In this document: positions 1-52,207 of the stretch, one piece after another
Layout of the letters: the number at the start of each line of letters is the position of its first letter
Position numbering within the stretch: the first letter of the stretch is position 1
Source of the DNA: a virus
Lineage: Duplodnaviria; Caudoviricetes
Length of the DNA stretch: 52,334 nucleotides
IMG/VR virus record: IMGVR_UViG_3300049491_000673
Span: 1-52,334 of that record
Strand: one strand, 5' to 3'
Made by a program: the position numbers and the translations under genes
The notes under the pieces: generated by a model
The model's database searches: none
Told to the model about the DNA's origin: nothing
The model's input: the letters and a program-made list of their open reading frames with translations, nothing else

Positions 1-127
1 TCGTTTGCAGAGGTATGCAAACGATACTGGGCAGGACTGGAATGACGTGCGGACTCAGGCCAAGTACTTCCTACGCGAAGTCAATGGGCTTGAGGAGCCA
101 AAGGAGAAGAAGTATGGCGCTCAACTC
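1..127. repeat. 127-bp exact overlap with 52208-52334 (circular assembly overlap)
   Basis: Bases 1-127 equal 52208-52334. The repeat lies inside a continuous ORF and 127 is a common assembler k-mer, so the unit genome is 52,207 bp. Confidence 0.93.
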
Positions 128-844
128 ATGGCTGCACAGAACGTGGATCAGGCTGCGCGAGCTAGCATCAGTCTTGCGCGGCCGGGAGGTTGGACTCCGA
201 ATAACCCCACCGCCGGTAACGGATACAAGCACACCTACGACGCCACGAAGCAGTTCGCAAAGGGCAATTACAAGGTCCCAACGCCGACTCAAAAGCTGAG
301 TGACACGGGCGCGAAATTCGACCCGAATGCTGCTGGTAAAGGATTCGATCTGACCACGATTGTGCCAAAAGCATCTGGTCAAAGTCCTGGTGCAGGCATG
401 GATTCACCGGACTACATACAAGGGCTGATTGAAAACGCCATTACGCCACAAGCAAAAAGGACGGGCAAGATTGCTGAAGGCGAAGTTGATCAAAGCCTTA
501 AGCCACTTGAATCCTTGCTCGTCGCAGGCACAGAGGCGGATCAAGTTGGCACATCCGAAGGAGATGCACCGATTCAGCCTGAGGATCCGACCATCAATTC
601 GAACCCAGATCGGCCGGGTGATTCAGGTTCATTGAATGGGACGGTGAGCAGAGATTTGTTTGACAGCGGCTCTCCCGCCTTGCAAATTTTCGCTGGAGTC
701 CTTTCTGCTTTGAGTCAAGGGTCTGCGGATGCAAAGAAAAAGAAGTCTAGCAGCCCGGACACTTCGATGTTCGACGCGGCCATGAACAGTGGAACCGCGC
801 GTGCTCCTTCAATAGCCCAGATCATGGCATCTATTCGAGTCTGA
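1..844 (+). CDS. 3' part of phage tail-lysozyme (Phage_lysozyme2-like) virion protein; ~355 aa, starts at 51984 and crosses the junction
   Basis: In frame with ATG 51984 across the overlap. The joined protein reads ...KSESQFDP...SRGLLQWNRSRLARLQRYA...DVRTQAKYFLRE...ARPG, the ES/GLxQW/R/Q/RP pattern of this family, followed by a low-complexity tail. Confidence 0.75.
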   Translation, partial: RLQRYANDTGQDWNDVRTQAKYFLREVNGLEEPKEKKYGAQLMAAQNVDQAARASISLARPGGWTPNNPTAGNGYKHTYDATKQFAKGNYKVPTPTQKLSDTGAKFDPNAAGKGFDLTTIVPKASGQSPGAGMDSPDYIQGLIENAITPQAKRTGKIAEGEVDQSLKPLESLLVAGTEADQVGTSEGDAPIQPEDPTINSNPDRPGDSGSLNGTVSRDLFDSGSPALQIFAGVLSALSQGSADAKKKKSSSPDTSMFDAAMNSGTARAPSIAQIMASIRV

Positions 845-847
845 TCT

Positions 848-1441
848 ATGGCAGAGAAGGATGTGCTACTTAGGTTTAAGCGAGTCGGAGATTATACAGA
901 GGATCAACTCCTAAAGGACTTGCGTGATCTTAATGAAGAAGTTCAGCTTATCATTCGCAATGGTAATGGCGTTCCGATTCCCGGCCCTCCTGGCCCTGTT
1001 GGTCCTGCCGGTCCTGATGGGGAGCAGGGCCCTATTGGACTCCAGGGAGAGGATGGAGAACCCGGTCCTGCCGGAACAGATGGACTCTCCGCCTACGAGA
1101 CCGCTGTCCTATATGGATTCGAAGGGGGAGAGGTTGAGTGGCTCCTCTCGCTGCAAGCGGATAGCTCGTACGAGATTGCCGTCCGTCTCTATGGTTATAA
1201 CGGTACTTACGACCAATGGTACTATGAGTCTCGAAGTGTTCAAGACGATTGGGGATTCATCGCTGAAGATTATGGATTCCTATACGGCACTGTGCTGGAT
1301 TTCGAAGACTATGGTGGCCTCTTTGGACCAGTAGCGCCGTTGGAATTTGGAGTCAGTGGTGGGTACATCTTGAGTAGTGATCTGGCCTTCTTCCTTGTGC
1401 CGTCTGATTTCACGGCCTATGTAGCACACACAGGAACATAG
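848..1441 (+). CDS. Collagen-repeat tail/fibre-associated protein
   Basis: About 12 G-X-Y triplets, then GLSAYETAVLYGFEGGEVEWLLSL, a motif typical of phage collagen-like proteins; acidic DWG/DYG repeats follow. Confidence 0.75.
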   Translation: MAEKDVLLRFKRVGDYTEDQLLKDLRDLNEEVQLIIRNGNGVPIPGPPGPVGPAGPDGEQGPIGLQGEDGEPGPAGTDGLSAYETAVLYGFEGGEVEWLLSLQADSSYEIAVRLYGYNGTYDQWYYESRSVQDDWGFIAEDYGFLYGTVLDFEDYGGLFGPVAPLEFGVSGGYILSSDLAFFLVPSDFTAYVAHTGT

Positions 1442-1442
1442 T

Positions 1443-2534
1443 ATGGGCGACCCGGTCAATCCTAAGCCGATTCTAGCGTTCAACGAGAAGCTGATTCTGT
1501 CTGGCACAGAGCAGTATTTTGCGTATGATGCGGCTGGAGCGATCAAGGATATTCGATTCAGCGTTAATGCTGTTAGAGAGTATGTGCAGAGATACACGCC
1601 GTCGGGTGGGATAGCGGCCGCTACGATTCCGTTGGCAATTGCAGAATTGGATTTGGAAAAAGTCGCCAAGGCTGGCGATACGATGACCGCACCATTGCAC
1701 TTGATTGCGTCGGCCACAGCTCAACCTAATTGGTATAGCCCAGGCACTATGAGTCTGGCGCTTCAGGGCGAAGGTGGAGCGGTTATGTACGTTAGAAGAT
1801 ACGATTCTTCTAGTAGCTCTCCCTACGTTTACCTGACTAAATCTCGTGGAACCGTTGCGGCTCCTGCCGTGCTGGCGGCGAATGACCTATGTGGGATCAT
1901 TCGATGCGACGGAGAGACAGGAGCCGGCCAGAGTCCTGTGGTGCAGATGTTCATGGCGGTGGTTGCTGCTACTCCATCCGGCACAAATATGGAGTCACGT
2001 CTTAGAATTTTCGTGAATCCGGCTGCCTCGATTACTCAGACCGAGGTATTCCGTTTGGACCATGCAACTGGACTCAGCTTGTATGGGGCTAATGTTGTCG
2101 TCGATAACAATCGTATTTTCCGACTCCGTTCATATACCATCGCGACTCTGCCTGCTGCGGCTACTGCCGCCGGGCAAATGATCTACTGCTCTGACCTTGG
2201 TGGCGGTGGTGGACAGCTGAATTCCGATGGTACTACGTGGCGTCGAGTCAGTTCTGGTGGCCAAGCTGCTATTGCCACAGATGCGATTTTCACATTGACT
2301 CCGTTGACGAGTGCACCAGAGATCAAACACACTGGTACGCTCACGGCGAATCGTGCTGTGACTCTCTCCACGACCAATGCGTTTTCTGGTGCCAGATTTA
2401 GAATCACAAGAACTGGTGGCGGTGCGTTCACTCTGGATGTTGGAGGTGGACTCAAGTCACTCGCAACGAATACGTGGGCTGAGTTCATCTATGATGGTGC
2501 CGCGTGGTATCTGGCGGCTTATGGAGCACTGTGA
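1443..2534 (+). CDS. Tail fibre / receptor-binding protein
   Basis: 363 aa, rich in Ala/Thr/Gly; KVAKAGDTMT fibre motif; C-terminal beta-rich domain ending FIYDGAAW; lies in the tail cluster. Confidence 0.7.
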   Translation: MGDPVNPKPILAFNEKLILSGTEQYFAYDAAGAIKDIRFSVNAVREYVQRYTPSGGIAAATIPLAIAELDLEKVAKAGDTMTAPLHLIASATAQPNWYSPGTMSLALQGEGGAVMYVRRYDSSSSSPYVYLTKSRGTVAAPAVLAANDLCGIIRCDGETGAGQSPVVQMFMAVVAATPSGTNMESRLRIFVNPAASITQTEVFRLDHATGLSLYGANVVVDNNRIFRLRSYTIATLPAAATAAGQMIYCSDLGGGGGQLNSDGTTWRRVSSGGQAAIATDAIFTLTPLTSAPEIKHTGTLTANRAVTLSTTNAFSGARFRITRTGGGAFTLDVGGGLKSLATNTWAEFIYDGAAWYLAAYGAL

Positions 2535-2830
2535 TGAGAATCGAAATTCAGAATTTCTACTGGGTCATGAAAGCTTTTGATGATCCGTTGACGCCAGCTT
2601 GGCAGATTCAGGTTGGCAAGACGGCCGAGAACATGGAGGAAATCCAGGCTCAAGGTGGTCAGTTGACGGTGATTCAAACTTGCAATATGGCTCAAGCAGC
2701 CGAACTGGGTGTGACGCTGGATGTTATCTCGGCGGTGATCAATGAATCATCGCTGGCGGAGTGTGATATGCTGCGTCAACAGATGCATGTGCTGCAGAAT
2801 CCGCCTCTGGACACAGGGGAGTCAGCATAA
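2534..2830 (+). CDS. Small protein, possible fibre assembly chaperone
   Basis: TGATG overlap with the fibre gene; 98 aa with a C-terminal coiled segment. Function inferred from position only. Confidence 0.45.
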   Translation: MRIEIQNFYWVMKAFDDPLTPAWQIQVGKTAENMEEIQAQGGQLTVIQTCNMAQAAELGVTLDVISAVINESSLAECDMLRQQMHVLQNPPLDTGESA

Positions 2831-3181
2831 ATGGCCATCGGCCCCTATGCACAGATAAAGCAGCATCGTCGGGGCAGTACGGTGGATCATGCGCGATTCA
2901 CTGGCGCTCCCGGTGAATTTTCCATGGATACGACGAAGAAAACGGTCGTCGTGCATGACGGTTATACGCAGGGTGGAATTCCGCTTCCGAGTCCAGTAGC
3001 ACCCGGACTGTTCATCCAAGGTACACAGGTCACGTGGATTGTGGCCCTGACTCAAGCTGCGTACGATGCACTGACGGACAAGAACCCGACGTTCCTGTAC
3101 GTCATCATTCCATCGACTCTCATCGCCGAGACGGGTCTATTCGTCTTGAGCCCTATTGAAATGAATCCGCCCATCTATTAA
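2831..3181 (+). CDS. Fibre connector protein with Mtd_N-like domain
   Basis: RRGSTVDHARFTGAPGEFSMDTTKKTVVVHDGYTQGG matches the major-tropism-determinant N-terminal pattern; followed by the LTQAAYDAL..K...LYVI fibre motif. Confidence 0.7.
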   Translation: MAIGPYAQIKQHRRGSTVDHARFTGAPGEFSMDTTKKTVVVHDGYTQGGIPLPSPVAPGLFIQGTQVTWIVALTQAAYDALTDKNPTFLYVIIPSTLIAETGLFVLSPIEMNPPIY

Positions 3182-3193
3182 CAGGAGTCAACC

Positions 3194-3610
3194 GTGGCCG
3201 CCTTTCAAAAAGTCAATAGTTTTGTCGAAGCGATTGCGCTGAAGAAGCACAATCTCGGCACGGATCAGATCATGATCGCATTGTGCGCGACAGCGAATCC
3301 GCCTGTGGCTGCCAATGCTGTGCTGGCGGACCTCGTGCAGATCGCATACACGAATCTGTCGGCCAGGATTCTGACAACGATCAGTGCGACTCAGGTGGCT
3401 GGAGTGTTTTCCTACATCTGTGCTGACTTGACTCTGACAGCTGCCGGTGGATCGGTGGCAGCGTTTCAGTATGTCGTGCTGTACAACAACACGGCGACGA
3501 ACAAAGAGATTATTGGATTCTATGATATCGGGGCGCCGGTGACTCTACTGGATACTCAGACTTATCCGCTGGACTTCAACCAGACGACGGGCGTCTTTCA
3601 GATAGCGTAA
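3194..3610 (+). CDS. Virion structural protein of the fibre module
   Basis: GTG start with AGGAG; MAAFQKVNSFVEAIA..KHNLGTD..IAL resembles a recurrent small phage tail-module family. Confidence 0.6.
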   Translation: MAAFQKVNSFVEAIALKKHNLGTDQIMIALCATANPPVAANAVLADLVQIAYTNLSARILTTISATQVAGVFSYICADLTLTAAGGSVAAFQYVVLYNNTATNKEIIGFYDIGAPVTLLDTQTYPLDFNQTTGVFQIA

Positions 3611-3615
3611 GATTC

Positions 3616-4293
3616 ATGGCTATCGGATTCTTCTTCAACGGAATCCCTGCCAGCAAGTACTATCTTGGAAAGACTCAGGTCAACAAGATAGTGTATGGCG
3701 CGGCAGAGATTTATGATCGATTCGCAGCGAACCGTATGAACACAGGGTTCTTCACGCTGACGATGAAAGACGTGGTGGCGATCGGACCCGTGCGTCCTTC
3801 AGCGATTCTAAATACCGGGTTCTTCACGCTCACAGGGTTCCCGGTCACATTGACTCCTCCGCCAGTGGGTCATCGCTACTGGAGGGTGAATGTTTCTGCG
3901 GCTGCGGCTGCGGGCGGTACTGGAACGGTGAACGTCGGCGAATGCGAAATGGCGATCGCAGCAGCTGGTGCGAATCAGTCTACCGTCGGGGCTAATGCAG
4001 CAGCCAGCAGTGCTGTAGGTGGGCGAGGCGCGAATCTAGCATTTGATGCTTCGCTTGCTTCGACGAGCTTCTGGGCTGCTAGTGCGGCGTTGCCACAGTG
4101 GTTGTCGTATGACTTCGGAGTTGGGAATGCAAAGACGTTGTACGAGGTACGAATCGCGGTTCACACGCTTGCTCGTTATCCAAGCACGTTCACGATTGAA
4201 TTTTCGGATGACAACGCAGCTTGGACTGTGAAGAACACGTATACCGGAATCACTACGTGGGTCGTCGATACTTACAAGACCTTCGTGCTCTGA
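3616..4293 (+). CDS. Adhesin with C-terminal discoidin/F5-8C-like carbohydrate-binding domain
   Basis: HRYWRV..., A-ASS, LAFD...W, PQWLSYDFG, P.TFTIEFSDD...WT pattern; N-terminal YLG..VNKI.YG connector motif. Confidence 0.7.
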   Translation: MAIGFFFNGIPASKYYLGKTQVNKIVYGAAEIYDRFAANRMNTGFFTLTMKDVVAIGPVRPSAILNTGFFTLTGFPVTLTPPPVGHRYWRVNVSAAAAAGGTGTVNVGECEMAIAAAGANQSTVGANAAASSAVGGRGANLAFDASLASTSFWAASAALPQWLSYDFGVGNAKTLYEVRIAVHTLARYPSTFTIEFSDDNAAWTVKNTYTGITTWVVDTYKTFVL

Positions 4294-4305
4294 GAGATTG
4301 GAATC

Positions 4306-6318
4306 ATGCCTAAAGACCGTTTCCCCATCCCAGACATCGCGAGCTATACGCCGAACATCGATCCTCGTGGAGTGCCGACTCAGAACTTCGTCCTTCAGGG
4401 CGAGAATTTCCTGTTTGATCCAATGGGACCCAAAAGTGGATTCGGATCTCGAATTATTGCTAATGGTGAAAGTATCGAGGTCGAAGGTGGAGTCGTCCAG
4501 AGCATCCAGATTGCTAAGTTCAGCTTCGTGTTTACTACACTTGGAGTCTATATGGTGGATGTGGAGGATTTGGATGCCCCCTGGAGTCAAGTTCTGAGTT
4601 TGACTCCGTTCGCCAACACTCCGATTCCGGAGGACAAGAAGTGGACGGCGGCTTATTTGGCCAAAGGAATCTACTTCGTGCATCCAGTCTACGGGATGTA
4701 TGTGCTGGCTACGAACGTCAACGTTCCGGTGATGACTCCGAAAGACCAAGATGATATACCAGGATTGCCCTATAAGCCACAAGCCATTTGTGAAACGAAT
4801 GGACGGATGGTCGTACTCGGAATCAAGTACATTGGATGGTCAAACAGTGGAGAGCCGCAGAATTTCATTCCGGAGATTGGTGGAGCTGGGCAACAGCTTC
4901 TATCTGATCGAGTCAGTGGCAATCCGCTTACAATGTCGGGTTTCCAGACCGGATTCATAGTTTGGACCGACTCTGGATGCATGATAGCGGAGTTCATCGG
5001 CGGTGACACGGTATTCCGATTCGATCGGTCAACCACGAAGCAGTTGCCGATCAATGCGTTCACAGTCGAGGACCTTCCGAATGGGAGTCAAATCCTGTTG
5101 ACGAAGCAAGGACTGTTCATCACGGAGTCAGGAAAAGAACCGACGCCCGTAGCGCCGCTGTTTTCGGATTTCTTGATGACTCTGTTGAAGGAACGTCCAC
5201 AGCTACGAGCCCGATTAACTTATCAGATAGAATCCGATCTCCTATACGCACAGCTTCGAGACTGGACAGACCATTATGTATACACCTATGTCCTTGCGGT
5301 GTCGCTGGATAAATGGGGTATATTCAGTGAGCGGCATCTTGGAATCATCCGCTACTCTCCAGTTCGAGGTGCCTTTGGATATTGTGATTCGAAAGGCATT
5401 GTACGCCGATTTGTTGAAACGTTCACGAAGGAAGAAACGCCAGGAGTCTTCGTTGGGCTTGACTCATTTCTCGAAATAGGCTACATCCGGCCTCCGAACA
5501 TGCTGCCGTCGGTAGATGTGTTGCTGGAAATGCAGGAGTTGCTGCTCGGCGGAGTCCCTGCAAGGCCAAGTTGGTCGATTCCGGACTACGTGGACCTTGG
5601 GCCGTTTGGTGCTTTGCCTCCCCCGTCCGGGTATTTCTGTTTGGATTTTATGTCGGGTGAATGGAGGTTCAACGGAGTCGTCTATGACTCGCCGACGGAG
5701 TTGCTAGCAAACTACAACGGTGGATTCCTAGGAGGAAATGGCTATGAAGTCACAGATGCGGCCACTCCTGGAATCTACTCTGACCCACTCAATTCCCCTC
5801 CTATCGCCGTGTTCGTTGCAGCAAATGTCAACGACCCAGGCGTTACATTTCTTATTCAATACCGACGATTCGAAGATCCAGAACTTAATGACACAGGCTG
5901 GGTTCTTTACCTCCGGCACAAGTTTGACCCGCTTGATCCTGACGCTCGTCGAATCAATCTCCAGTTTGACCAGAACACTGGACTTGTCACACTCACTGAT
6001 CTCGGAGGAAACATTGCTCTGTCTCGTCCGCTGCCGAACGCAGGTGTTGCGAGAGTTGGAATCACACTTGCGCGAAATGATGGCCCAGCAGAACATGTCT
6101 ACTCGTTGAGTGTCAACGGCAGCACGGTGTCTGCGACTCGTGCTAGCACAGCATCCGTGAGTGAGATGGTGAATGGAGTCGAAGTAGATTTCGGATGGAA
6201 GCATGATGTTAATGCTCCGTTCGATAGATACTTTCAAGAACCGTTCTTCTTTCAGCAAATCTGCATCATGGAGTCACTTCAGGATGCTGACTTGACTCTG
6301 TGGACTGGAGACATCTGA
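4306..6318 (+). CDS. Tail nozzle / DNA-stabilisation protein (P22 gp10 or T7 gp12 analogue) with an extra C-terminal beta-sandwich domain
   Basis: 670 aa with beta-propeller-like repeats (ICETNGRMVVLG..IGWSNSGEPQNF); located just before the ejection proteins. Confidence 0.6.
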   Translation: MPKDRFPIPDIASYTPNIDPRGVPTQNFVLQGENFLFDPMGPKSGFGSRIIANGESIEVEGGVVQSIQIAKFSFVFTTLGVYMVDVEDLDAPWSQVLSLTPFANTPIPEDKKWTAAYLAKGIYFVHPVYGMYVLATNVNVPVMTPKDQDDIPGLPYKPQAICETNGRMVVLGIKYIGWSNSGEPQNFIPEIGGAGQQLLSDRVSGNPLTMSGFQTGFIVWTDSGCMIAEFIGGDTVFRFDRSTTKQLPINAFTVEDLPNGSQILLTKQGLFITESGKEPTPVAPLFSDFLMTLLKERPQLRARLTYQIESDLLYAQLRDWTDHYVYTYVLAVSLDKWGIFSERHLGIIRYSPVRGAFGYCDSKGIVRRFVETFTKEETPGVFVGLDSFLEIGYIRPPNMLPSVDVLLEMQELLLGGVPARPSWSIPDYVDLGPFGALPPPSGYFCLDFMSGEWRFNGVVYDSPTELLANYNGGFLGGNGYEVTDAATPGIYSDPLNSPPIAVFVAANVNDPGVTFLIQYRRFEDPELNDTGWVLYLRHKFDPLDPDARRINLQFDQNTGLVTLTDLGGNIALSRPLPNAGVARVGITLARNDGPAEHVYSLSVNGSTVSATRASTASVSEMVNGVEVDFGWKHDVNAPFDRYFQEPFFFQQICIMESLQDADLTLWTGDI

Positions 6319-8005: not shown

Positions 8006-8017
8006 TAGGAGACTCAC

Positions 8018-41322: not shown

Positions 41323-41334
41323 CACGCGAAAGAC

Positions 41335-41892: not shown

Positions 41893-41900
41893 CGCGAATG

Positions 41901-41997: not shown

Positions 41998-42048
41998 TCT
42001 TTACTCTGATTCTACTTGATACAACTAGGAGTTGAGTCGCCCATAAAT

Positions 42049-44736: not shown

Positions 44737-46717
44737 TGCAAGCGAGCAGAATCTGAAGCCAGCGAAGATTGTGCTGGCGAATTCGAATGGACTCCTGAGC
44801 AAATTGACGGAAGATCAGTACAGTGATCTGAAGGATTATCTGCTGGGCCGTCTCACAAGTGGCAATGTGAATCGAAGCATTCGTTTGACGAGGTACTCTC
44901 GCATCGACCGAATGATCTCCACATGGCAGAAGTTGACTCCAGAGGACAGTCAACGCGAGATTGTGGAGGACAACACGGGCAAGAATCAGGCTCTGCCCAT
45001 GAACCTTCCGATTCTGGCTGCTCACCTGGACGACACGTGTGCGTTCTACGGCGAAGTGTTCTCGAGTCACAGCCGTGACTTCTACACGGTTCCGCCGAAG
45101 ATTCTCTCCGAGCCGACGAAGGCTCTGGCGGAGAAGATGAACAAGGATACGAAGAGTCGAAAATACTACAAGGAACTCGTGTCCGGCCTTCGGAGTCTGA
45201 TTAAGTACAATCTCGGTGGCTACGCAGTCAGATGGGAGGAAGGTGGAGGGCAAGGGGAACTGGCCGAACCGGGCAATCGAATCGAATCTATCGACATGTA
45301 CAACTATCTCTGGGATACCACGGTGCTGGATCCCAGTAAGATTCCGACTGAAGCCGAGTGGGCAGCCAGGGCGACGACGAAGAATCGCATGTGGCTAGAG
45401 CGTGGACAGCTCAACGGGCGGCTGGAGAACGTCGAGAAGGTGCTGTATCCGGATTCGAACACGCTGGCGGAGCGTGAGAGGGCCTATCCGAGCAATGCGC
45501 CGGTAGTGAACGGGAGCATGGGCAGGTACTATAAGCAACCGCCGACCTATGTTGGACTCAGCATGGATGCTACGGACGATCACACGGCCGCTGGGCTCAG
45601 TGCTCCGAACTGGGAGTCCTACGGTCTGTCTCTGGATTCAGAGGGCACCACTCCAATACCCGGCATCGAGGTAGTGGAGATGTACTGCTGGCTGAATCCG
45701 GATCAGTTCGGCCTAATGACTCCCACACAGAGCGGGACTCCGGACCCAAGTCAGCTTGGTGTGGATGCCAATGGGGAGAGCTACAGCCTCTGGAGATTCA
45801 CCATCGTAGGCTCCTGTGAGATCTGCAAGGCTGAACCAGTCAATGGAATCAGCGGTTCACAGCCTGAGATACCACATTATCTCGGATTCATGAGCGTGGA
45901 TGACATGAAAGAGGCACAGAGGAGTGTCATGGAGTTGCTGAAGCCCTTTCAGCGATTCAGTTCCTTCCTGTTTAACATCTTTGTGGCCGGCGCGAGGAAG
46001 AATATATGGGGACTCAAAGGCTACGACCCCACCATGTTCGACATCACAAAGATCAAACAGGGTGATGTGGCCGGATTCCTGGCCTCTATGCAGCCTGGGA
46101 GGGACGTGCGGACGGGTCTGATGACTCTGGATTCGAGCACAGGAACGGACAAGACGATGGAGATGTTGGATGGAGTCATGAATGTGACTCAGAAACTCTT
46201 TCCCAGCCAGTCTTTGCCGTCGCAAGTGGCCGGAATTGATCGTGCGGTGAAGAATCAAGTGGCGGCTGTGATGCAAGGGGCGGTCCGACGGCTCTCCATG
46301 ATTGCGAAGATCATGGATTCTGACATTATGGGTCCGATGCGGCTCCAGTGCTATCGGAATTTGAGTGTGAATGACTCTGAAGGGCTTCAGGGACTCAAAG
46401 AAGAGGACGTTGCGAAGGTTCTGGGTTCCGGATTGAACCAGTTGAACCGAGAATCGGTCGCCAGCGAGGTCAAGGAGATGATCTATGCTGTGATTCAGAA
46501 TCCAGAAGCGTCTCAGACCTATGATGTGGCCGGATTGATGAACTACTGGAGTCAAATGATGGATGCACCCAGTGATTTGGGTGAATTCGTCAAGACTCCG
46601 CCTCCGGCTGCCGCAGCAGGGGCTATTGGGCCTGATGGGCAGCCGATCGCGGCTCCTGGAGTCATGGACGCAAGCGGATTGGCTGGTGGTCAGCCAGTGC
46701 AGGTGCCTGGCATCTGA
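44720..46717 (+). CDS. Portal protein
   Basis: 665 aa between terL and scaffold/capsid; Pro/Ala-rich tail; synteny. Confidence 0.75.
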   Translation: MSVYSNASEQNLKPAKIVLANSNGLLSKLTEDQYSDLKDYLLGRLTSGNVNRSIRLTRYSRIDRMISTWQKLTPEDSQREIVEDNTGKNQALPMNLPILAAHLDDTCAFYGEVFSSHSRDFYTVPPKILSEPTKALAEKMNKDTKSRKYYKELVSGLRSLIKYNLGGYAVRWEEGGGQGELAEPGNRIESIDMYNYLWDTTVLDPSKIPTEAEWAARATTKNRMWLERGQLNGRLENVEKVLYPDSNTLAERERAYPSNAPVVNGSMGRYYKQPPTYVGLSMDATDDHTAAGLSAPNWESYGLSLDSEGTTPIPGIEVVEMYCWLNPDQFGLMTPTQSGTPDPSQLGVDANGESYSLWRFTIVGSCEICKAEPVNGISGSQPEIPHYLGFMSVDDMKEAQRSVMELLKPFQRFSSFLFNIFVAGARKNIWGLKGYDPTMFDITKIKQGDVAGFLASMQPGRDVRTGLMTLDSSTGTDKTMEMLDGVMNVTQKLFPSQSLPSQVAGIDRAVKNQVAAVMQGAVRRLSMIAKIMDSDIMGPMRLQCYRNLSVNDSEGLQGLKEEDVAKVLGSGLNQLNRESVASEVKEMIYAVIQNPEASQTYDVAGLMNYWSQMMDAPSDLGEFVKTPPPAAAAGAIGPDGQPIAAPGVMDASGLAGGQPVQVPGI

Positions 46718-46796
46718 TTCAAGCGGTCCCCGGAGACCGAACGCGCCAGCGTTCGGTCGAGGAGACCTATACGAAGGACATAGGGGAAACAGAGTC

Positions 46797-47054
46797 ATGA
46801 ATCTCAGAGAAGTATTTAGCGAGTTGAGTGAGGAGGACAAGACCAGTGTTGCGAAGGCGATTCTGGTTTTGAACAATACTGGATTCCTGAACGAGATCAG
46901 CATCCAGAACAAGGAGCACATGCTGTCGGCGGTCAGGGAAGTGGCGCATCAAGGTGATTCGCACCGCTTCACGGCTGGCTGTGTGAGGTTTAATATGATG
47001 GAGGAGTTCCTTCGCACCCTCCATGATCTCACGAGTCACCTGGACAAGGAATAG
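46797..47054 (+). CDS. Hypothetical protein (85 aa)
   Basis: AGGGG RBS; small gene in the usual position between portal and scaffold. Confidence 0.6.
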   Translation: MNLREVFSELSEEDKTSVAKAILVLNNTGFLNEISIQNKEHMLSAVREVAHQGDSHRFTAGCVRFNMMEEFLRTLHDLTSHLDKE

Positions 47055-47113
47055 CGGTTTAGTAAGGTATATTGAGTCAAGATTGGAACCTCAAAACGGA
47101 AGGCACGAGTGAA

Positions 47114-48001
47114 ATGGCAATATTCTCGAATATGTTTGGCGGCGGAGGCCAACAGCAGAATCAACAAGGGAATGGGCAGGGGAGCGACCAGGGCGGCACC
47201 GGGAATGGTGATATGAATCAAAACAGCGACCAGGGTATGTACGACGATGGCACCGAGGACAATGGACTCGAGATCTTCGGCGAATTGTTCAGCGAGGACG
47301 ATGGTGACGGCGGTGATGGCACTGGTGATGATCAGAATCAGAACCAGAATCAAAATCAAAATCAAAACCAGAACCAAAACCAGAATCAGAACCAGGGCGC
47401 CGGCGAGACCGACGAGCAGAAGATCGCCAAGGAGGTTCAGACTCTCTGGAATGCGATGACGGTGCCGGAAACGGTGATTCCGGAGAACTTCGATCCTACA
47501 GACCCCAAGCAGCTACGTGATGTGCTGGTGAAGTCGAATCAGGCGGCGGCACAACAGGTGATGGCCATGGTGTTCAAGCCCATGCAGGCGAGTCTGACGG
47601 CCTTCGCGAAGGATATTCGGCAGGAGCTGCAGGCTGGATTCCAGCAATATGGCAACCAGACCGGCGCACAGCAGGCACTGGAAACGATCGTGCCAGAGGT
47701 TCGAGATCCGAATCTCAAAGGCTTGGTCAATAGTCTGTTCTCCCAGGGCCAGAAGAAGTTCCCGAAGAATCCGACGCAGGCTGCTCAGGCCGTGCGCAAG
47801 GCACTCGATGTGATGGGAATCACAGGGCGTCAGAGTGGATCGGACCCTTCCAGGGGGGATTCTAACAACAGCCAGGGAGGGACGTTCAAGACTGGCAAGG
47901 ATGCGCTGGATATGTTTTTGCCGATGCCCAAGCGGCCCCAGAATGATCAGCAGAATCGCAATCAAGGCGGCACCGGGAATCAGAACCAGAACCGTCGGTG
48001 A
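47114..48001 (+). CDS. Capsid scaffolding protein
   Basis: Acidic, Q/N/G-rich disordered N-terminus and helical core; directly before the capsid gene. Confidence 0.7.
   Translation: MAIFSNMFGGGGQQQNQQGNGQGSDQGGTGNGDMNQNSDQGMYDDGTEDNGLEIFGELFSEDDGDGGDGTGDDQNQNQNQNQNQNQNQNQNQNQGAGETDEQKIAKEVQTLWNAMTVPETVIPENFDPTDPKQLRDVLVKSNQAAAQQVMAMVFKPMQASLTAFAKDIRQELQAGFQQYGNQTGAQQALETIVPEVRDPNLKGLVNSLFSQGQKKFPKNPTQAAQAVRKALDVMGITGRQSGSDPSRGDSNNSQGGTFKTGKDALDMFLPMPKRPQNDQQNRNQGGTGNQNQNRR
47333..47395 (+). repeat. Coding hexamer repeat (CARAAY)10 encoding (QN)10Q
   Basis: Read directly; synonymous variation between units. Confidence 0.9.
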
Positions 48002-48010
48002 TGTCTGCTG

Positions 48011-48047
48011 GCGGTGGTTAAGGACGTGAGTCACCCTTAACCACCGC
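48011..48047 (+). promoter_or_regulatory. Stem-loop between scaffold and capsid genes
   Basis: GCGGTGGTTAAGG pairs with CCTTAACCACCGC (13 bp); the loop contains GTGAGTCAC. Confidence 0.55.
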
Positions 48048-48156
48048 AATTTCCCTAGCGTTGGAGTCAGACAAGAGTTACGTTCAATTGGTAAGTAAAT
48101 CCCTGCGAACCGGACCAAGGTCCACGATTCAAACGCGAAACGCAAAGGAGATTCAA

Positions 48157-49353
48157 ATGGCCGTTCGCGGAGTTTTTGCAAGTCACTCCGGTATCATCGG
48201 AGATCGAAGGGCGGATTTGTCCGCTCGAGTCCTCATGAACATGCCCGGCGGCTCTGCTCCGCTTCTGGCTCTTTCGTCCGGAATGCCGTCGTCGCCGGCG
48301 AATGACACGGCGTTCAGCTGGATCGAGGATTCGCATATCAGCGGCAATACCACGGTCGTCGGCACAGTCGGCTCGGGTGCGGTGACTGTTGTGGTTGCTG
48401 ATTCGAACATCTGGGTGCCCAACAGCATCATCATGAACCAGGCGACCGGCGAATACATGCTCGTGACTTCGGTCAACGGGAACAGCATCGGAATCCTTCG
48501 TGGCCTCGCCGGTACAACGGCAGCGGCTCTGACGAACGCCGATGCGCTTCAGTCAATCGGCTCTGGATTCGAAGAGGGCGGCGGAAAACCGACTCCTGTC
48601 AGCCAGCGCGGCGCCAGCATCACGAACTACGTCCAGATTTTCAAGAACGGCTGGGCGATCACCGGCACGGCGCAATCGATCGACTTCGTGACCGGCAGCC
48701 AGATGGCGATGAATCGCGAACAGGCGGCCGCCTATCACGCGGAGGACATCGAACGTGCGTTCTTCTGGGGCAAGAAGGATGTGCGGACCGTCAACAACAA
48801 GCAGTTCCGACTCACCAACGGCGTGCTCTCTCAGATCGCCAGCTACGGCGGACTCGTGTCGCCGGCGAACTACGGCGGTACTCCTGGTGCGATGGCTCTG
48901 GCTGGACTCCAGACCTTCATGCGGCAGATTTTCGACAAGCGCGTCAAGGGCTTGCCGAACGAGCGCATCGCGTTCTGTGGTTCGATCGTGCTGGAACTGA
49001 TTCAGAACATGGTGCTGAAAGACACCACGTATCAGATCACGGCCAACGAGAACAGCTACGGGATTCAGGTGACCACCCTGAACTTCTTCAACGGCCAGCT
49101 GAAGCTCGTGACTCATCCGCTGATGGTCGAAAACGCGACCTGGCAGCACGAGCTCTACGTCCTGCATCCCGGACTGATTCGAAAGCGGATCAAGCGCGAC
49201 TCGTGGTCGGAGGAGTTTTCGCCGCAGAAGCAGAACAACAACGGCATCGATGCGACCGAGGGCTATATCGCGATCGAACTGGGATTCGAGCTCAAGGGCG
49301 CCGCTTGCATGGGCATCATGCGGAACATCCAGACCGCGGTGAAGTCCTTCTAG
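48157..49353 (+). CDS. Major capsid protein (DUF5309/SU10-like, HK97 fold)
   Basis: AAGGAG RBS; FSWIED, NYVQIF....ITGTAQ, H..DIE.AFFWG, TNGVL; strong codon bias. Confidence 0.88.
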   Translation: MAVRGVFASHSGIIGDRRADLSARVLMNMPGGSAPLLALSSGMPSSPANDTAFSWIEDSHISGNTTVVGTVGSGAVTVVVADSNIWVPNSIIMNQATGEYMLVTSVNGNSIGILRGLAGTTAAALTNADALQSIGSGFEEGGGKPTPVSQRGASITNYVQIFKNGWAITGTAQSIDFVTGSQMAMNREQAAAYHAEDIERAFFWGKKDVRTVNNKQFRLTNGVLSQIASYGGLVSPANYGGTPGAMALAGLQTFMRQIFDKRVKGLPNERIAFCGSIVLELIQNMVLKDTTYQITANENSYGIQVTTLNFFNGQLKLVTHPLMVENATWQHELYVLHPGLIRKRIKRDSWSEEFSPQKQNNNGIDATEGYIAIELGFELKGAACMGIMRNIQTAVKSF

Positions 49354-49390
49354 TTCGGCGGCGAAGGTTCGAGGGCTGAATCGCCGAATA

Positions 49391-49429
49391 GCTGGGTCTG
49401 CTGCTTCCTGAGGTTCAAGCAGACCCAGC
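49391..49429 (+). terminator. Stem-loop after the capsid gene
   Basis: GCTGGGTCTGCT pairs with AGCAGACCCAGC; no strong U-tract. Confidence 0.5.
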
Positions 49430-49471
49430 GTCCCTCGTGAATCTCACATAGAGTTCAAAGGAATAGGGGAA

Positions 49472-50014
49472 ATGAATAGCTATAGGCACAGAGAGTTCAT
49501 GCGATTCCAGATCGGCGAGTGGGAGTTCAACGACTTCGTGCTCACGATTCCGGACGAGAACGACAACTACAGGTTCTTGGAACTGCTGTCCAAGCAACCG
49601 CGACTCGATCAGCTCCAGATCGTCGAATTCAATCCGGAGGCCGAGCGCCTGGCGAACATCAGCATGGCCGAGCGATTCGACGCAGCACGAGGACGTATCG
49701 GCAAGCAACAGGTGTTCAAGGGCGGCGCCCAGGATTCAACCGGCATGGTTGACGGTCCGAAGGACGGAAGTGCTGTGGCTCGGCAGCAGTTGCTGGCAGA
49801 GCAGGCTGAGACTGATCGTCTGGAGAAGCTGCGGATTCAGAATGAAGCAGCGCAGTTGGCGGCCGACAAGGCGAAGCGCGACGAGTTCATGGCGGAGCAG
49901 GCAGAGAAGGAGCGACTCGCCAAGGAAGAAGCATCGGCAGCGGCGGCGGAGCAGGCGGCGAAGGACGAAGCGGCCAAGAAGGCGGCTGCTGGAATCATCG
50001 CGTCCAAGAAGTAA
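49472..50014 (+). CDS. Hypothetical protein with Ala/Glu/Lys coiled-coil tail
   Basis: AGGGG RBS; follows the capsid gene. Confidence 0.7.
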   Translation: MNSYRHREFMRFQIGEWEFNDFVLTIPDENDNYRFLELLSKQPRLDQLQIVEFNPEAERLANISMAERFDAARGRIGKQQVFKGGAQDSTGMVDGPKDGSAVARQQLLAEQAETDRLEKLRIQNEAAQLAADKAKRDEFMAEQAEKERLAKEEASAAAAEQAAKDEAAKKAAAGIIASKK

Positions 50015-50043
50015 GCTTGCAGGTGAGCTAGTCGGAGTCGCAG

Positions 50044-50733
50044 ATGACCACATTCAGTCAAATGGTTGATGAACTGGTGCTGGAACATCTGCGACCCGAT
50101 TTGAAAACCAGTATTTGTGCCTATCTGAATCAAACAATACGGGAAGTGCATTCCGACAAGAACGGAATCCCGATTCTGTTTAATTCAAATAGGAACGAGC
50201 TGGATTACACAGTGACTGTACTGCCGGTCGTATGGCCGATTCCATCCGTGCCACGGTTCCAGAAACTTGACACGGCGTACTATCCGGAGAGCGGGCGGTA
50301 TGCTAAGGAGCGGGCTCTGAGTCGGGCTTACGATAATGGAGTTGGATCAGACGATGCCTATTGGTATCGATCGGGCCAGAACATCGTTTTCAATGGAGTT
50401 CTGGTTGGGAATCATATCTATCTGGCATGGTTTGAGTTCCCACGGCAACTGCTGTATTATGCTGTTGCGGATCGTCCAGCCACCTACGATGTGGAGAATG
50501 ATTCATACACCTATCTCCCTGCATACGATGTGGATGCAACGACTCGCGAAGACGCGGTAAACAAGACGGATAATTGGCTCCTGACTCGTTGGCCAGAGAT
50601 GATGAAACAGGGAGTCAGGTCTAAGATCTTCTCCAGGCTCGGGGAGGATGTGAGAGCGAAAACGAACTATTCGCTCTATGAGTCGCAGCGTGCTGGACTC
50701 ATCGGTTCCGAGCAATATAACTTGAACGGTTAA
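50044..50733 (+). CDS. Head-tail adaptor (tail tubular A-like)
   Basis: MTTFSQMVDELV...RPDL, NWLLTRWP; size and synteny match podovirus adaptors. Confidence 0.6.
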   Translation: MTTFSQMVDELVLEHLRPDLKTSICAYLNQTIREVHSDKNGIPILFNSNRNELDYTVTVLPVVWPIPSVPRFQKLDTAYYPESGRYAKERALSRAYDNGVGSDDAYWYRSGQNIVFNGVLVGNHIYLAWFEFPRQLLYYAVADRPATYDVENDSYTYLPAYDVDATTREDAVNKTDNWLLTRWPEMMKQGVRSKIFSRLGEDVRAKTNYSLYESQRAGLIGSEQYNLNG

Positions 50734-50751
50734 CCTCCAAAGGAGAATCAA

Positions 50752-51162
50752 ATGGCCACCCTTCAATCCCCGTATAAGTTGTCGAAGGCATTCGATCAGC
50801 AGATTCAAGATCTTTCGTCCAAGCAGGCGGACATGAGCGTCGGCTACGACGACAACACGGTGGCCTACACGGCTGCTCGACTCATCGATGCGACCGACAT
50901 GGGCAAGTTCCTTTATATCACCACAGCCGGCGCCATCAACGTGACGTTGCAGTCGGACGCGAATGCTCCTGGAATCACGATCGGCCAGGAATGCGAAGTC
51001 ATGCAGGCGGGCGCTGGACTCATCACGTTCCTTGCTGGCGGCGGTGCGACGGTGAACAAGGCGGTTCCGACGCTCAAGACGCTCGGCCAGTGGAGTCGGT
51101 GCAAGGTCAAGAAGGTGGCGGCCAACACGTGGGTCGTCAACGGTGATCTCGCTCTGGTCTAA
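50752..51162 (+). CDS. Virion fibre/decoration domain protein
   Basis: AAGGAG RBS; D.GK...VTL...IG....Q.GAG.ITF..G...GQWS...KVAANTWVVNGDL pattern. Confidence 0.6.
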   Translation: MATLQSPYKLSKAFDQQIQDLSSKQADMSVGYDDNTVAYTAARLIDATDMGKFLYITTAGAINVTLQSDANAPGITIGQECEVMQAGAGLITFLAGGGATVNKAVPTLKTLGQWSRCKVKKVAANTWVVNGDLALV

Positions 51163-51273
51163 TCCTTGGCGCTGGGAGTGCGAGAGTTCTCCCTAGCTGA
51201 CTCGGAGACGGGGACCAGCAACCGCCATGGTGCTGGTCCCCGTTTGTGCATATGGGTGTGAAGGGGACTCACA

Positions 51274-51975
51274 ATGACTGGCCTGAATGTAGAGGAACTG
51301 AAAGTAACACAGCAGAAGCTGAAGGACGAAGGATTCGATCCTGGTGTGATCGATGGCCTGTGGGGCAGGAATACGTCCAGAGCAGTTCGTGCTTTTCAGT
51401 CGACTCAACATCTTGATCCCACGGGGATTCTAGACGAGCCTACGATGAAGGCACTCGGCCTTCAAAAGAAGATGAAGGCATTCGAGGTTGATCCTCCGTG
51501 GCTCGCGCTTGCACGGCAGAAGATGGGATTCCTTGAGAACGAGGAGCGGACCAAGGCGTTTCTAAAGGCCGATGGCAAGACACTCGGCGATCCGAGTCAG
51601 TTCCCATGGTGCGGAGATTTCATCGAGACGTGCTTTGGGCTCACGCTGCGGGATGAGATTCTTCCTGTGAATCCATATTATGCCCTGAATTGGCTCAAGT
51701 GGGGTCAAGGGCTCACAGAGCCTGCATTGGGCTGTGTGGGAGTCAAGAAGCGATTCCAGAACAAGGTGCTGGTTGGTGGCCATGTGTTCTTCGTGGTCGG
51801 TCAGACGCAGTTGAACATATTTGCTCTCGGAGGGAATCAGAGCAATCGCGTCAGCATCGTGACCATCAGCAAGAATGTTGTCGAGGGTTATCGCTGGCCT
51901 TCGACTCAGCCGCTGCCCCCTCCGATGGGCATCAGCCCTCCAGGCAGCTTTGCACGCGGTGGTAGTGAGGCATAG
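51274..51975 (+). CDS. Endolysin: peptidoglycan-binding domain plus TIGR02594-type NlpC/P60 peptidase
   Basis: QQKLKDEGFDPGVIDGLWGRNTSRAVRAFQ...L..TGILD; PWC, GHVFFV, LGGNQSNRV. Confidence 0.88.
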   Translation: MTGLNVEELKVTQQKLKDEGFDPGVIDGLWGRNTSRAVRAFQSTQHLDPTGILDEPTMKALGLQKKMKAFEVDPPWLALARQKMGFLENEERTKAFLKADGKTLGDPSQFPWCGDFIETCFGLTLRDEILPVNPYYALNWLKWGQGLTEPALGCVGVKKRFQNKVLVGGHVFFVVGQTQLNIFALGGNQSNRVSIVTISKNVVEGYRWPSTQPLPPPMGISPPGSFARGGSEA

Positions 51976-51983
51976 AGGGAATC

Positions 51984-52207
51984 ATGTCTTTCAAATCCAG
52001 CCCAGGGAACATTCCTATCGTGCGTGAGATTCTCATGCGCGGTGATCCGGAGCGTGGAATCAAAGGTTTGAGAGGGTTCGCGTTGGCTGGAGCACTGGCC
52101 AGGGTGAAGTCTGAATCACAGTTCGATCCAAAGGCGGTTCGGCTGAATGATGCTGGGCCGGGAAAGCATAGCCGTGGCTTGCTTCAGTGGAATCGTTCGC
52201 GCTTGGC
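51984..52207 (+). CDS. 5' part of the tail-lysozyme gene (continues at position 1)
   Basis: GAGGG RBS and ATG 51984; open to the end of the window and in frame with ORF 5..844. Confidence 0.75.

Follow-up and report, generated by a model that had tools for sequence, protein, structure and literature searches.

In Alphaproteobacteria, the CcrM/GcrA system uses m6A at GANTC, accepts any of the four central bases and works through sites in promoters and at the replication origin. GANTC as the CcrM target is under-represented in Alphaproteobacteria, and some lineages avoid GAWTC only (PMC8919816, in the excerpted text). The window, meaning the whole stretch of DNA analysed, is a complete phage record of 52,334 bp from freshwater; it belongs to a podophage lineage. 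It shares the word and the use of all four central bases with CcrM/GcrA hosts; unlike in those hosts, GANTC is 4.4-fold over-represented, mostly intragenic and evenly spaced. In the nearest cultured relatives and a sister genome (G005), GANTC or GAWTC is depleted, as is typical of the CcrM/GcrA world (PMC8919816, same excerpt). Restriction-site avoidance offers a further parallel: pelagiphage clades divide by GANTC density, and the sister G005 is alike. The pelagiphage contrast, as excerpted, is between depleted and not depleted (PMC9516812), whereas here the other pole is a 4- to 5-fold excess with ordered spacing. Orphan GANTC methyltransferases are encoded by Sinorhizobium LM21 prophages and Ochrobactrum phage vB_OspM_OC, alphaproteobacterial phages that engage the same mark, and the excerpted text does not mention site enrichment in them (PMC7139368). 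Those phages carry the enzyme, whereas the GANTC-rich clade has no recognisable methyltransferase.

Chi, KOPS and DNA uptake sequences are oriented words of 8 to 12 bases that occur about once per kb or less. They resemble GANTC as short words kept frequent genome-wide for a protein machine that reads them (in the case of GANTC a putative one), while single copies turn over. GANTC differs in being a palindrome of four specified bases, found once per 58 bp, with a zone of neutral site use and a periodic fine structure. SeqA binds paired hemimethylated GATC, and the distance between two copies of that short methylatable palindrome governs its binding. SeqA has a different word and host group, and its preferred spacings put both copies on the same face of the helix, one to three turns apart, a range in which the GANTC lattice is mostly depleted except at 23–25 bp. 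The phi29 p6 complex has one dimer per 24 nt and one monomer per 12 bp, and its DNA takes about 63 bp for each superhelical turn (PMC10899789, excerpted text). The repeat along the whole genome is alike, with 23–25 bp, 13.2 bp and a mean of about 58 bp here; unlike in p6, the period is 13.2 rather than 12 bp, a word is used rather than bendability, and one rich genome (G002) lacks the 24-bp peak. No p6-like protein was identified in the phage.

The layout of the window is as follows.

1..127: direct terminal repeat of 127 bp, copy at the left end
52208..52334: copy of the repeat at the right end, carrying one of the 898 GANTC sites
1..52334: genome-wide GANTC array, 898 sites, on average 58 bp apart, with a gap CV of 0.49 and a longest gap of 209 bp
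39527..40308: divergence point of the leftward (minus-strand) and rightward (plus-strand) gene blocks
40052..41322, plus strand: sole low-density stretch, 8–9 sites per kb, still about twice chance

GANTC is a palindrome and thus identical on both strands. With the second repeat copy set aside, the unique genome is 52,207 bp and holds 897 sites. The earlier note, made by hand counting, had reported 16 sites each in 4261–5100, 34500–35340 and the capsid gene; the counts are 16, 17 and 19. Its estimate of a 3.5- to 5-fold enrichment is borne out, more strongly than noted, by the genome-wide observed/expected ratio (O/E) of 4.4. All four central bases are used, as it had stated (GAATC 232, GATTC 239, GACTC 202, GAGTC 225), and the four pentamers rank as the top four of 1024 by O/E (3.9–4.95; the next pentamer has 2.62). 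The excess survived both null models: a third-order Markov model predicts 138–184 copies of each pentamer versus 202–239 seen, and when synonymous codons were shuffled within each gene (200 shuffles) coding GANTC fell from 862 to 373.0±13.0 (z=37.7, O/E 2.31). Control words showed no equal enrichment. By base composition, we counted 127 GTNAC (O/E 0.62), 232 CANTG (1.14), 327 GATC (1.61), 116 CTNAG (0.57) and 193 AGNCT sites; under the codon shuffle, GTNAC, CANTG, AGNCT and GATC gave 0.95, 1.06, 1.03 and 1.02. TCNGA (1.32) and TCGA (1.19) are slightly raised against the shuffle, which probably follows from the high frequency of GA and TC dinucleotides.

The sites are spread throughout the genome. 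All three reading frames are used (200/287/375 of the coding sites), and the density is higher in non-coding (24.9 per kb) than in coding DNA (16.9 per kb). Every 2-kb bin has 28–41 sites except 40001–42000 (21). Long gaps looked rare in the earlier note, and indeed only 2.3% of 100-bp windows lack a site versus 18% for a Poisson process. The low-density stretch spans an 83-aa ORF and a 337-aa ORF (40309–41322), plus the largest gap (40079–40288). This gap and a second of the three largest (39644–39797) lie inside the divergence region. The homologue of the 337-aa gene in G006 is likewise site-poor (2 sites in 855 bp).

The following genes bear on the comparison with relatives and on the possible function of the sites.

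16922..18337, minus strand: DUF3987 protein (Pfam PF13148), which we take to be a possible primase/helicase
18240..18890: dNMP-kinase-like gene (phrog_139)
19630..21804, minus strand: family A DNA polymerase
25703..26110, minus strand: 135-aa helical ORF, of a family conserved in the rich clade
27513..28535, minus strand: PD-(D/E)XK nuclease
32541..34499, minus strand: RecD-like superfamily 1 helicase
36567..37562, minus strand: 331-aa ORF in the early region, from an orphan family; neither Pfam nor PHROG gave a match
48061..49353, plus strand: SU10-type major capsid protein, 19 GANTC sites
51274..51975, plus strand: endolysin-like protein with a PG_binding_1 domain

From the family A polymerase, the phage copies its own DNA. 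A terminase-like protein shares 25% identity with proteins annotated as large terminases. In the early and replication modules, most ORFs are orphans without a Pfam or PHROG match.

Relatives were retrieved with the major capsid protein. Nine relatives are also rich in GANTC (O/E 3.6–5.2), which gives ten records including the window, and their proteins are 25–70% identical. The six complete genomes among them (G001–G004, G006, G007) have O/E of 3.55–4.68, the partial records L030 and L032 have 4.57 and 4.63, and L061 has 5.23. Fifteen more distant relatives show O/E of 0.68–1.84 and a gap CV of 0.76–1.16. In the sister G005 (capsid protein 52% identical) the O/E is 0.36 and GAWTC is nearly absent. 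Depletion is also seen in two cultured relatives with alphaproteobacterial hosts, Caulobacter phage Kuura (0.31) and Roseobacter phage CRP-810 (0.47). All conserved core families of the rich clade are also found in G005, apart from the early region, which is absent from its contig.

The under-dispersion of the gaps for which the earlier note had proposed a test is present and strong across the seven complete rich genomes (CV 0.45–0.76): 0.45–0.59 in the window and G001–G004, 0.62 in G007 and 0.76 in G006. The mean spacing is 57–62 bp in six of the seven and 73 bp in G006. In the pair correlation, a second site at 5–22 or 28–37 bp from the first occurs at about neutral frequency, with a sharp peak at 23–25 bp (missing in G002) and further favoured distances at about 41, 54, 67 and 79 bp, i.e. 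a period of about 13.2 bp. The periodic amplitude is 9.3 at 13.2 bp and 9.9 at about 25.6 bp, while the maxima in smooth-gap simulations (n=200) are 4.5 and 4.0, and four control motifs give 3.0 or less. A footprint-only model with a 22-bp hard core falls short: it cannot produce the 28–37 bp trough, and it leaves too many long gaps (7–10% above 110 bp versus 3–4% observed).

Selection is visible at the level of individual positions. Among the positions where GANTC is synonymously possible, 38–49% are realised in the rich genomes versus 4.8% in G005. The realised fraction reaches 85–89% where the nearest other site is more than 50–82 bp away; it rises with the gap filled from 0.68 at 39–43 bp to 0.89 at 77–82 bp, and drops to 0.24 at 30–34 bp. 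DS and ES dipeptides in core proteins have O/E of 1.13–2.05 in the rich genomes versus 0.98–0.99 in G005, so that GANTC selection alters codon use and even dipeptide use. Individual sites turn over while the density stays: genome pairs have 1097 of 5860 site positions in common versus 104 expected, and about 81% are unshared. Core genes and ORFs confined to one genome, a 37%-GC HNH gene among the latter, are equally dense (O/E 4.40 and 4.36). One-mismatch neighbours of GANTC show no consistent direction of depletion (O/E 0.66–1.37), similar to G005. It was concluded that the GANTC sites are a selected, nearly gap-free, quasi-regular lattice across the genome of one podophage lineage. The claim of the earlier note that the sites are under selection stands: the enrichment survives codon-preserving shuffles, shapes dipeptide use and is kept among relatives whose proteins are 25–70% identical.

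No DNA methyltransferase family was found among the scanned window ORFs (Pfam or PHROG), and six-frame searches of the window with PF01555 and PF02086 gave nothing at E<=1, in agreement with the earlier note, which saw no methylase. A GcrA homologue was looked for in the window and not found, and no CtrA box was found either; both results count against the CcrM reading. Several observations link the phage to the CcrM world: the pattern of the sister G005 is the GAWTC-only avoidance of some alphaproteobacterial lineages, and the best full-length endolysin matches are in Roseobacter, Rhizobium and Caulobacter phages (33–38% identity). Capsid- and polymerase-similar relatives also infect Pseudomonas, Polaromonas, Vibrio, Aeromonas and Microcystis, which counts against an alphaproteobacterial reading. 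The sole match in a bacterial genome is a contig in a bin labelled Acholeplasmataceae, probably mis-binned.

We tentatively favour the explanation that the lattice is read by a GANTC-specific dimeric protein, likeliest a host CcrM-type system, and forms an epigenetic coat on the phage DNA, although we put it at somewhat short of an even chance. The spacing rules are those expected if a DNA-binding protein with two-fold symmetry and specificity for GANTC imposed them. Around every site that is bound or marked, about 40 bp on either side may be "covered", and the gain would be that no long stretch is left uncovered. The likeliest agent would be an N6-adenine methyltransferase of CcrM type, supplied by an alphaproteobacterial host and possibly joined by a methyl-GANTC reader such as GcrA. 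Having no recognisable methylase of its own, the phage would borrow this cell-cycle enzyme to acquire about 1,800 evenly spaced methyl groups per genome. Such a sequence-encoded coat would set the phage DNA apart from the GANTC-poor host chromosome. It might keep off a host factor, such as a silencer filament or a nuclease, that can act only where a long stretch is unmarked, or it might bring in the transcription machinery. An ordinary restriction system cutting unmethylated GANTC would select against the sites, not for them. CcrM is made for only a short part of the cell cycle in the hosts studied best, so replicating phage DNA may not be fully methylated. To our knowledge, nothing about CcrM predicts the 13.2-bp period or the 28–37 bp trough, and methyl-GANTC at such spacing is not known to block any host factor.

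A phage-encoded reader or modifier, with the host uninvolved, is a rather unlikely explanation but one with specific points in its favour. Here an abundant protein would coat or wrap the genome, or an enzyme would hypermodify a GANTC base, and the lattice would serve replication, transcription switching, compaction or protection. The 23–25 bp peak, the 13.2-bp period and the 57–62 bp spacing resemble the p6 complex (PMC10899789, as excerpted), but p6 recognises bendability and not a sequence word, and the 24-bp peak is missing in G002. A phage-encoded reader would explain why the chosen word need not match the host; the early and replication modules are mostly orphans, and there is a dNMP-kinase-like gene. 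The 331-aa protein is a candidate for such a reader or modifier: six of the seven complete rich genomes show strong conservation of its family, which is weak in G002, and the G005 contig stops short of the region. Against this explanation, none of the candidates could be linked to DNA binding. The AF2 model of the 331-aa protein (pLDDT 63.8) and that of the 135-aa family had no Foldseek match in the PDB, and an Atlas search with a 457-aa protein gave no lead. The 135-aa family (E 1e-27 to 1e-63 in the rich clade) occurs weakly in G005 too (2e-08), and the other conserved core families outside the early region that the G005 contig lacks are present there as well. Furthermore, the depleted relatives Kuura, CRP-810 and G005 evolve around exactly the same word, which points to a host factor. 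The earlier note had offered three options; a dense self mark and a lattice for a reader protein are both compatible with the data, whereas the third, a pure sponge, fits the spacing poorly. A sponge would titrate host CcrM and/or GcrA and stall the methylation-dependent cell cycle and transcription. The load of 898 sites per genome is very large for a GANTC-poor host class (PMC8919816, excerpted text), and a limit on simultaneous occupancy set by the footprint would fit the neutral zone below 22 bp. Titration rewards site number and not even coverage, so that site use should be flat beyond the footprint (reasoned, not simulated); instead it dips to 0.24 at 30–34 bp and rises from 0.68 to 0.89 over 39–82 bp, long gaps are rarer than a footprint-only model gives, and the density halts at one site per 58 bp though 24-bp packing is permitted. 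We consider it improbable.

Two further explanations receive less credence still. A non-adaptive drive, in which mutational bias or biased repair/gene conversion changes words close to GANTC into GANTC with no benefit to the phage, would be in keeping with the saturated single-genome ORFs, the 37%-GC HNH gene among them, which could mean fast conversion of any resident DNA. The one-mismatch neighbours (O/E 0.66–1.37) are not consistently drained, however, and no Vsr- or MutH-type repair nuclease was found in the Pfam scans. A drive alone gives no neutral zone, 24-bp peak, 13.2-bp period or gap filling and would still require a GANTC-binding protein with these spacing properties; it is very improbable. 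We give the least credence to the sites as signals for phage DNA transactions, for instance as points where primase starts on either strand or as marks along which packaging or ejection would step. As a palindrome the word is equally dense on the two strands; a DUF3987 protein, a family A polymerase and a terminase-like protein are all encoded by the phage itself; and the recognition words of known phage primases are short and end in TC (GTC in T7). Against this, depleted G005 has these replication and packaging genes too, the four central bases are used about equally, and one site per 58 bp far exceeds any priming need known to us.

We found no earlier description in the literature of a regularly spaced landing or marking array of this kind in DNA. 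The evenly spaced GANTC sites suggest that in this podophage lineage the DNA itself works as such an array.

GANTC occurs 898 times in the window, on average every 58 bp, whereas base composition predicts about 203 sites (observed/expected, O/E, 4.42). The earlier note had proposed a genome-wide excess from hand counts in three local stretches. Those counts proved right or slightly low, and the excess was confirmed under both Markov and codon-shuffle nulls. The GANTC pentamers are the top four of all 1024 by O/E (3.9 to 4.95; the fifth pentamer reaches 2.62) and still exceed a third-order Markov expectation. Shuffling synonymous codons within genes, which preserves the proteins and a codon usage already bent towards GANTC, gave 373 ± 13 coding sites compared with 862 observed (z = 37.7). 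The control words GTNAC, CANTG, AGNCT and GATC stayed at 0.95 to 1.06 under the same shuffle and show no matching enrichment. All four central bases are used, as the earlier note had it (GAATC:GATTC 232:239, GACTC:GAGTC 202:225). Over-representation across the whole genome is a property shared with Chi, KOPS and DUS, but the orientation bias of those words is absent from this palindrome. Sites fall in all three reading frames, and their density is higher still in non-coding DNA. They match the target sequence of the alphaproteobacterial methyltransferase CcrM and its reader GcrA (5'-GANTC-3', any central base). Placement at promoters or an origin, as in CcrM/GcrA regulation, was not found: 852 of the 898 sites lie wholly within ORFs, and density is uniform at 28 to 41 sites per 2-kb bin, with the sole exception of 40-42 kb (21 sites).

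The window is the whole virus record (52,334 bp) with 127-bp direct terminal repeats, leaving a unique genome of 52,207 bp. About 96% of it is coding, in three blocks. The blocks and the genes that could be assigned are as follows.

Blocks and assigned genes of the window
40.0-52.3 kb, continuing at 0-16.7 kb, plus strand: plus-strand block
16.7-40.0 kb, minus strand: minus-strand block
16922-18337, minus strand: DUF3987 protein
18240-18890, minus strand: dNMP-kinase-like protein (phrog_139, E 4e-11)
19630-21804, minus strand: family A DNA polymerase
27513-28535, minus strand: PD-(D/E)XK nuclease
29813-30160: HTH protein
31426-31929, minus strand: HNH endonuclease (phrog_374, E 1.5e-42)
32541-34499, minus strand: RecD-like helicase
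48061-49353, plus strand: SU10-type major capsid protein
51274-51975, plus strand: protein with a peptidoglycan-binding domain (endolysin-like)

The majority of the remaining ORFs had no match in Pfam and PHROG scans, and no tRNA genes were found in the window. In some phages, dNMP kinases go together with non-standard nucleotides; alongside the dNMP-kinase-like gene, however, neither a hydroxymethylase nor anything comparable was detected. A cluster of long hairpins at 41860-42210, with the common word CAAGTATAGTTT, lies directly upstream of the genes for a 258-aa protein and a terminase-like protein and may be a regulatory or packaging signal. No cultured phage has a near DNA match to the window. 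The nearest ones, among them the Pseudomonas PaP2/119X group, Polaromonas phage Tiera, Caulobacter phage Kuura, EBPR podovirus 3 and Roseobacter phage CRP-810, share just 24 to 29% protein identity with it. The stretch is present as assembled contigs in three sequencing runs. These belong to two studies and carry the labels freshwater sediment and freshwater. Since contigs at least 99% identical to the window occur in both studies, the phage is real and not limited to a single sample. The parts left uncovered in runs X2 and X3 carry no meaning, and the differences listed between run contigs (12 over 20 kb) are too few for testing selection at sites.

Relatives were found by capsid-based scans of IMG/VR and by a scan of bacterial genome assemblies. 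The survey extended the excess to nine further rich records (O/E 3.6 to 5.23). Eight are IMG/VR records with capsids 52 to 66% identical to that of the window and O/E 3.6 to 4.7. The ninth, and tenth clade member, is contig L061 from a bacterial assembly (capsid 70% identical, O/E 5.23, coefficient of variation (CV) of gaps 0.51). Six relatives that are complete or 99% complete, taken whole, carry 859, 768, 904, 842, 683 and 903 sites. Their proteins are just 25 to 59% identical to those of the window, so the excess has been held through deep divergence. G005 is a sister phage whose capsid is 52% identical and whose core genes hardly differ, yet it has only 60 GANTC sites; the under-representation typical of restriction-site avoidance is thus seen in G005 (O/E 0.36) and not in the window. 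GAWTC is almost absent from G005, while GASTC stands at a normal level. Fifteen more distant relatives have O/E 0.68 to 1.84 and gap CV 0.76 to 1.16, and the cultured phages Kuura and CRP-810 have O/E 0.31 and 0.47. As far as the consulted part of PMC8919816 goes, Alphaproteobacteria under-represent GANTC and some lineages avoid GAWTC only; the part of PMC9516812 drawn on here has GANTC density dividing pelagiphage clades. Taken with these published depletions and splits, the rich clade and its depleted relatives indicate that the same word has been selected in both directions within one phage group.

Some other words also deviate in these genomes. G005 has no GTAC site and an ACGT O/E of 0.24; from its sequence, it looks like a phage that avoids several host restriction or methylation words. 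Independently of the GANTC excess, the window and the rich genomes G001 to G004 are poor in GGNCC and CCNGG (O/E 0.33 to 0.73), and CTAG is depleted in the two rich genomes scanned for it, the window and G002 (0.29 to 0.33). CRP-810 (L059, first 50 kb) carries an excess of a six-base palindrome, CGTACG (73 times, O/E 5.46, gap CV 0.85). When other palindromes were checked in 15 sequences (two rich genomes plus 13 phages or contigs for comparison), none showed the combination that marks GANTC in the rich genomes: O/E above 4, sites in the hundreds and a CV close to 0.5.

The strength of selection was estimated from possible sites, defined as every position where synonymous codons could spell GANTC given the protein sequence. 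The seven complete rich genomes realise 38 to 49% of them, compared with 4.8% in G005. Use of a possible site depends on the distance to its nearest neighbour, as listed here.

Fraction of possible sites used, by distance to the nearest other site
5-19 bp: 0.26
23-25 bp: 0.59
30-34 bp: 0.24
39-43 bp: 0.68
50-82 bp: 0.78-0.89

By reasoning rather than simulation, use that is independent of neighbours would give a flat curve. Selection for GANTC extends to the protein level: in core proteins of the rich clade, Asp-Ser and Glu-Ser, spelled GAN-TCN, reach 1.13 to 2.05 times their expected frequency, compared with 0.98 to 0.99 in G005. In nine aligned core genes, the exact position of a site was shared in 1097 of 5860 pairwise comparisons (104 expected), so about four in five sites are not shared. 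ORFs confined to a single genome match core genes in site density (O/E 4.36 and 4.40), and the HNH gene, which has 37% GC and is absent from all relatives, carries yet 7 GANTC (13.9 per kb). One-mismatch neighbours of GANTC show no directional drain. Only three genes are sparse: the 337-aa gene at 40309-41322 of the window, its homologue in the rich genome G006 and one further G006 gene. In the two G006 genes (L052, 10808-12118 and 17054-17908), density drops to 4.6 and 2.3 GANTC per kb, although the rest of that genome is rich. Both may have been acquired recently from a GANTC-poor relative and could then be used to time the rate of site accumulation.

The sites are also spaced far more evenly than at random. 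The gap CV is 0.45 to 0.59 in the window and G001 to G004, in keeping with the impression of the earlier note that long gaps are rare; it is 0.76 in G006 and 0.62 in G007, the remaining two complete rich genomes. For comparison, the expected CV is 1 if sites fall at random, and relatives without the excess have 0.76 to 1.16. Gaps shorter than 10 bp make up 3 to 4% of all gaps (16% expected) and gaps longer than 200 bp about 0.1% (3% expected). A distance of 57 bp from the nearest site centre takes in 99% of the bases of the window; with equally many sites placed at random, that distance is 131 bp. At 5 to 22 bp and 28 to 37 bp from a site, further sites occur at 0.25 to 0.55 of the mean density, which is about the neutral level from codon usage (373/862 = 0.43). 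A sharp peak of pair distances at 23 to 25 bp is found in four of the five genomes examined and is absent in G002. Additional peaks lie near 41, 54, 66-69 and 78-81 bp, and past about 110 bp the pair-distance curve shows no further structure. When pair distances of 30 to 200 bp in the seven genomes were Fourier-analysed, two components stood out, one at 13.2 bp with an amplitude of 9.3 and one at about 25.6 bp with 9.9; the maxima in 200 simulated runs with smooth gamma-distributed gaps were 4.5 and 4.0, respectively, and the periodic amplitude of four control words in the same genomes was at most 3.0. A model with a 22-bp exclusion only left 7 to 10% of gaps above 110 bp, compared with 3 to 4% observed, and lacked the trough at 28 to 37 bp. 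No conserved sequence was found between partner sites 24 bp apart, and the only bias in the extended flanks is a weak one, towards T or C ahead of the site and A or G behind it. Purely as geometry, a 13.2-13.3 bp period corresponds to 4/3 turns of a helix with 10.0 bp per turn, or to 5/4 turns at 10.6 bp per turn, so that neighbouring lattice points would face directions 120 or 90 degrees apart. The largest GANTC-free gaps of G003 (402 bp, L022, 28236-28638) and G004 (369 bp, L023, 26460-26829), placed by homologue coordinates, appear to lie near the junction of the converging structural and replication gene blocks.

The earlier note had seen no methylase in the phage, and our searches agree. 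Six-frame searches of the window with PF01555 and PF02086 gave no match at E<=1, Pfam and PHROG scans of its ORFs found no methyltransferase, and PF01555 is absent from all five of G001 to G005; the phage thus lacks the DNA methyltransferase gene that goes with self-methylation. Three genes that a tblastn contrast with G005 had marked as confined to rich genomes were rejected when profile searches found all of them in G005. The exception to presence in G005 is a 331-aa family (window ORF 36567-37562, minus strand), which sits in the early region beyond the end of the G005 contig (91% complete). Since G005 has all conserved families except this one, whose region its contig lacks, there is no usable contrast in gene content. 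The 331-aa family has just three homologues beyond the window's own in a large protein collection, none with a Pfam domain. Its AF2 model has a mean pLDDT of 63.8, with one of five models above 40, and Foldseek against PDB gave no match at E<=0.001. An orphan 135-aa family (window ORF 25703-26110, minus strand) gave nothing below E 0.78 in a PDB profile search and no Foldseek match at E<=0.001 (AF2 pLDDT 66.4). A 457-aa protein scored at most 0.85 in an Atlas search, with no family. Further conserved orphan proteins of the phage are encoded at 19001-19228, 22170-22808 and 40309-41322.

The GcrA family had no match in the window (G000), G001, G002 or G004. In G003, a sub-threshold match to the GcrA N-terminal/DNA-binding domain was found (14 to 16 bits; cut-off 26.9). 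It concerns two adjacent paralogous small ORFs on the minus strand, L029:1306-1650 and L029:1653-2018, the N-terminus of one being weakly GcrA-like. Searches of the other seven genomes detected no homologue of these paralogues, and the resemblance is a lead only. CtrA boxes (TTAA-N7-TTAA) were not found (0.13 expected).

For the host, the sole match in bacterial genomes was the 49-kb contig L061, in a bin (G010) labelled Acholeplasmataceae. Four other contigs of the bin have 29 to 49% GC compared with 55% for L061, and the related window phage encodes the peptidoglycan-binding-domain protein; from this GC mismatch and gene content, the placement of L061 is probably a binning error. The best full-length endolysin matches are phages of Alphaproteobacteria.

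Taken together, the neutral surroundings of each site, the single preferred short distance, the periodic longer distances and the filling of long gaps fit selection via a two-fold symmetric protein specific for GANTC. We consider it likely that such a protein is what the sites are selected for and that the benefit is coverage of the DNA without long bare stretches. The protein that we favour is a host methylation system of the CcrM type, which would read the lattice. This choice is favoured because the word is exactly that of CcrM, because the phage has no methylase of its own, because G005 shows the GAWTC-specific avoidance known for some Alphaproteobacteria, because two cultured relatives on alphaproteobacterial hosts are depleted, and because of the endolysin matches. 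Against it, CcrM is short-lived in model hosts, and we know of nothing about CcrM that predicts a 13.2-bp period.

The main rival is a coat protein encoded by the phage in the manner of phi29 p6. In the part of PMC10899789 drawn on here, p6 binds as a dimer per 24 nt and a monomer per 12 bp, with 63 bp per superhelical turn, figures that come remarkably near to those of the lattice (23-25 bp, 13.2 bp and 58 bp). A p6-type complex has a regular repeat, to which the close peak in four of five genomes and the two significant Fourier periods may correspond, but the order here fades beyond about 110 bp. General Pfam and PHROG scans matched none of the ORFs scanned to a histone-like or p6 family, and many small ORFs are orphans. 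Less of the pattern is accounted for by a pure sponge, by a non-adaptive drive, or by signals for priming or packaging. Returning to a reader of GANTC, we suggest with considerable doubt that part of what this phage lineage does is written into how a short word is spaced rather than into a gene. The host cell-cycle methylase, or another reader, would turn the whole genome into an evenly marked or coated filament, in which GANTC recurs roughly every 58 bp with a phase of about 13.2 bp and hardly any stretch above 110 bp is bare.

Phages are known for losing short palindromes. In the literature covered, which leaves supplements and subscription journals outside, no phage was reported with GANTC or another short palindrome enriched several-fold and evenly spaced; the accessible parts dealt instead with depletion, phage-encoded GANTC methylases and site avoidance. 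As no report was found, a near-saturating, evenly spaced short palindrome in a phage appears to be new; an earlier report is possible. The combination of high O/E and gap CV near 0.5 gives a search image for hidden lattices in viral collections, and the approximately 5,900 sites in seven complete genomes allow exact spacing rules to be derived. Rich and depleted sister lineages with nearly the same core genes offer an experimentally sharp contrast. If the proposal is true, the lattice would represent a novel type of device for counter-defence or self-identity, an epigenetic armour encoded in the sequence, and the mirror image of restriction-site avoidance, the sister lineage having purged the same word instead. 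If it is read through host methylation, an essential cell-cycle enzyme of the host would have been turned into a phage asset, and these phages would provide a testable case of selection on DNA "texture" overriding codon and even amino-acid choice.
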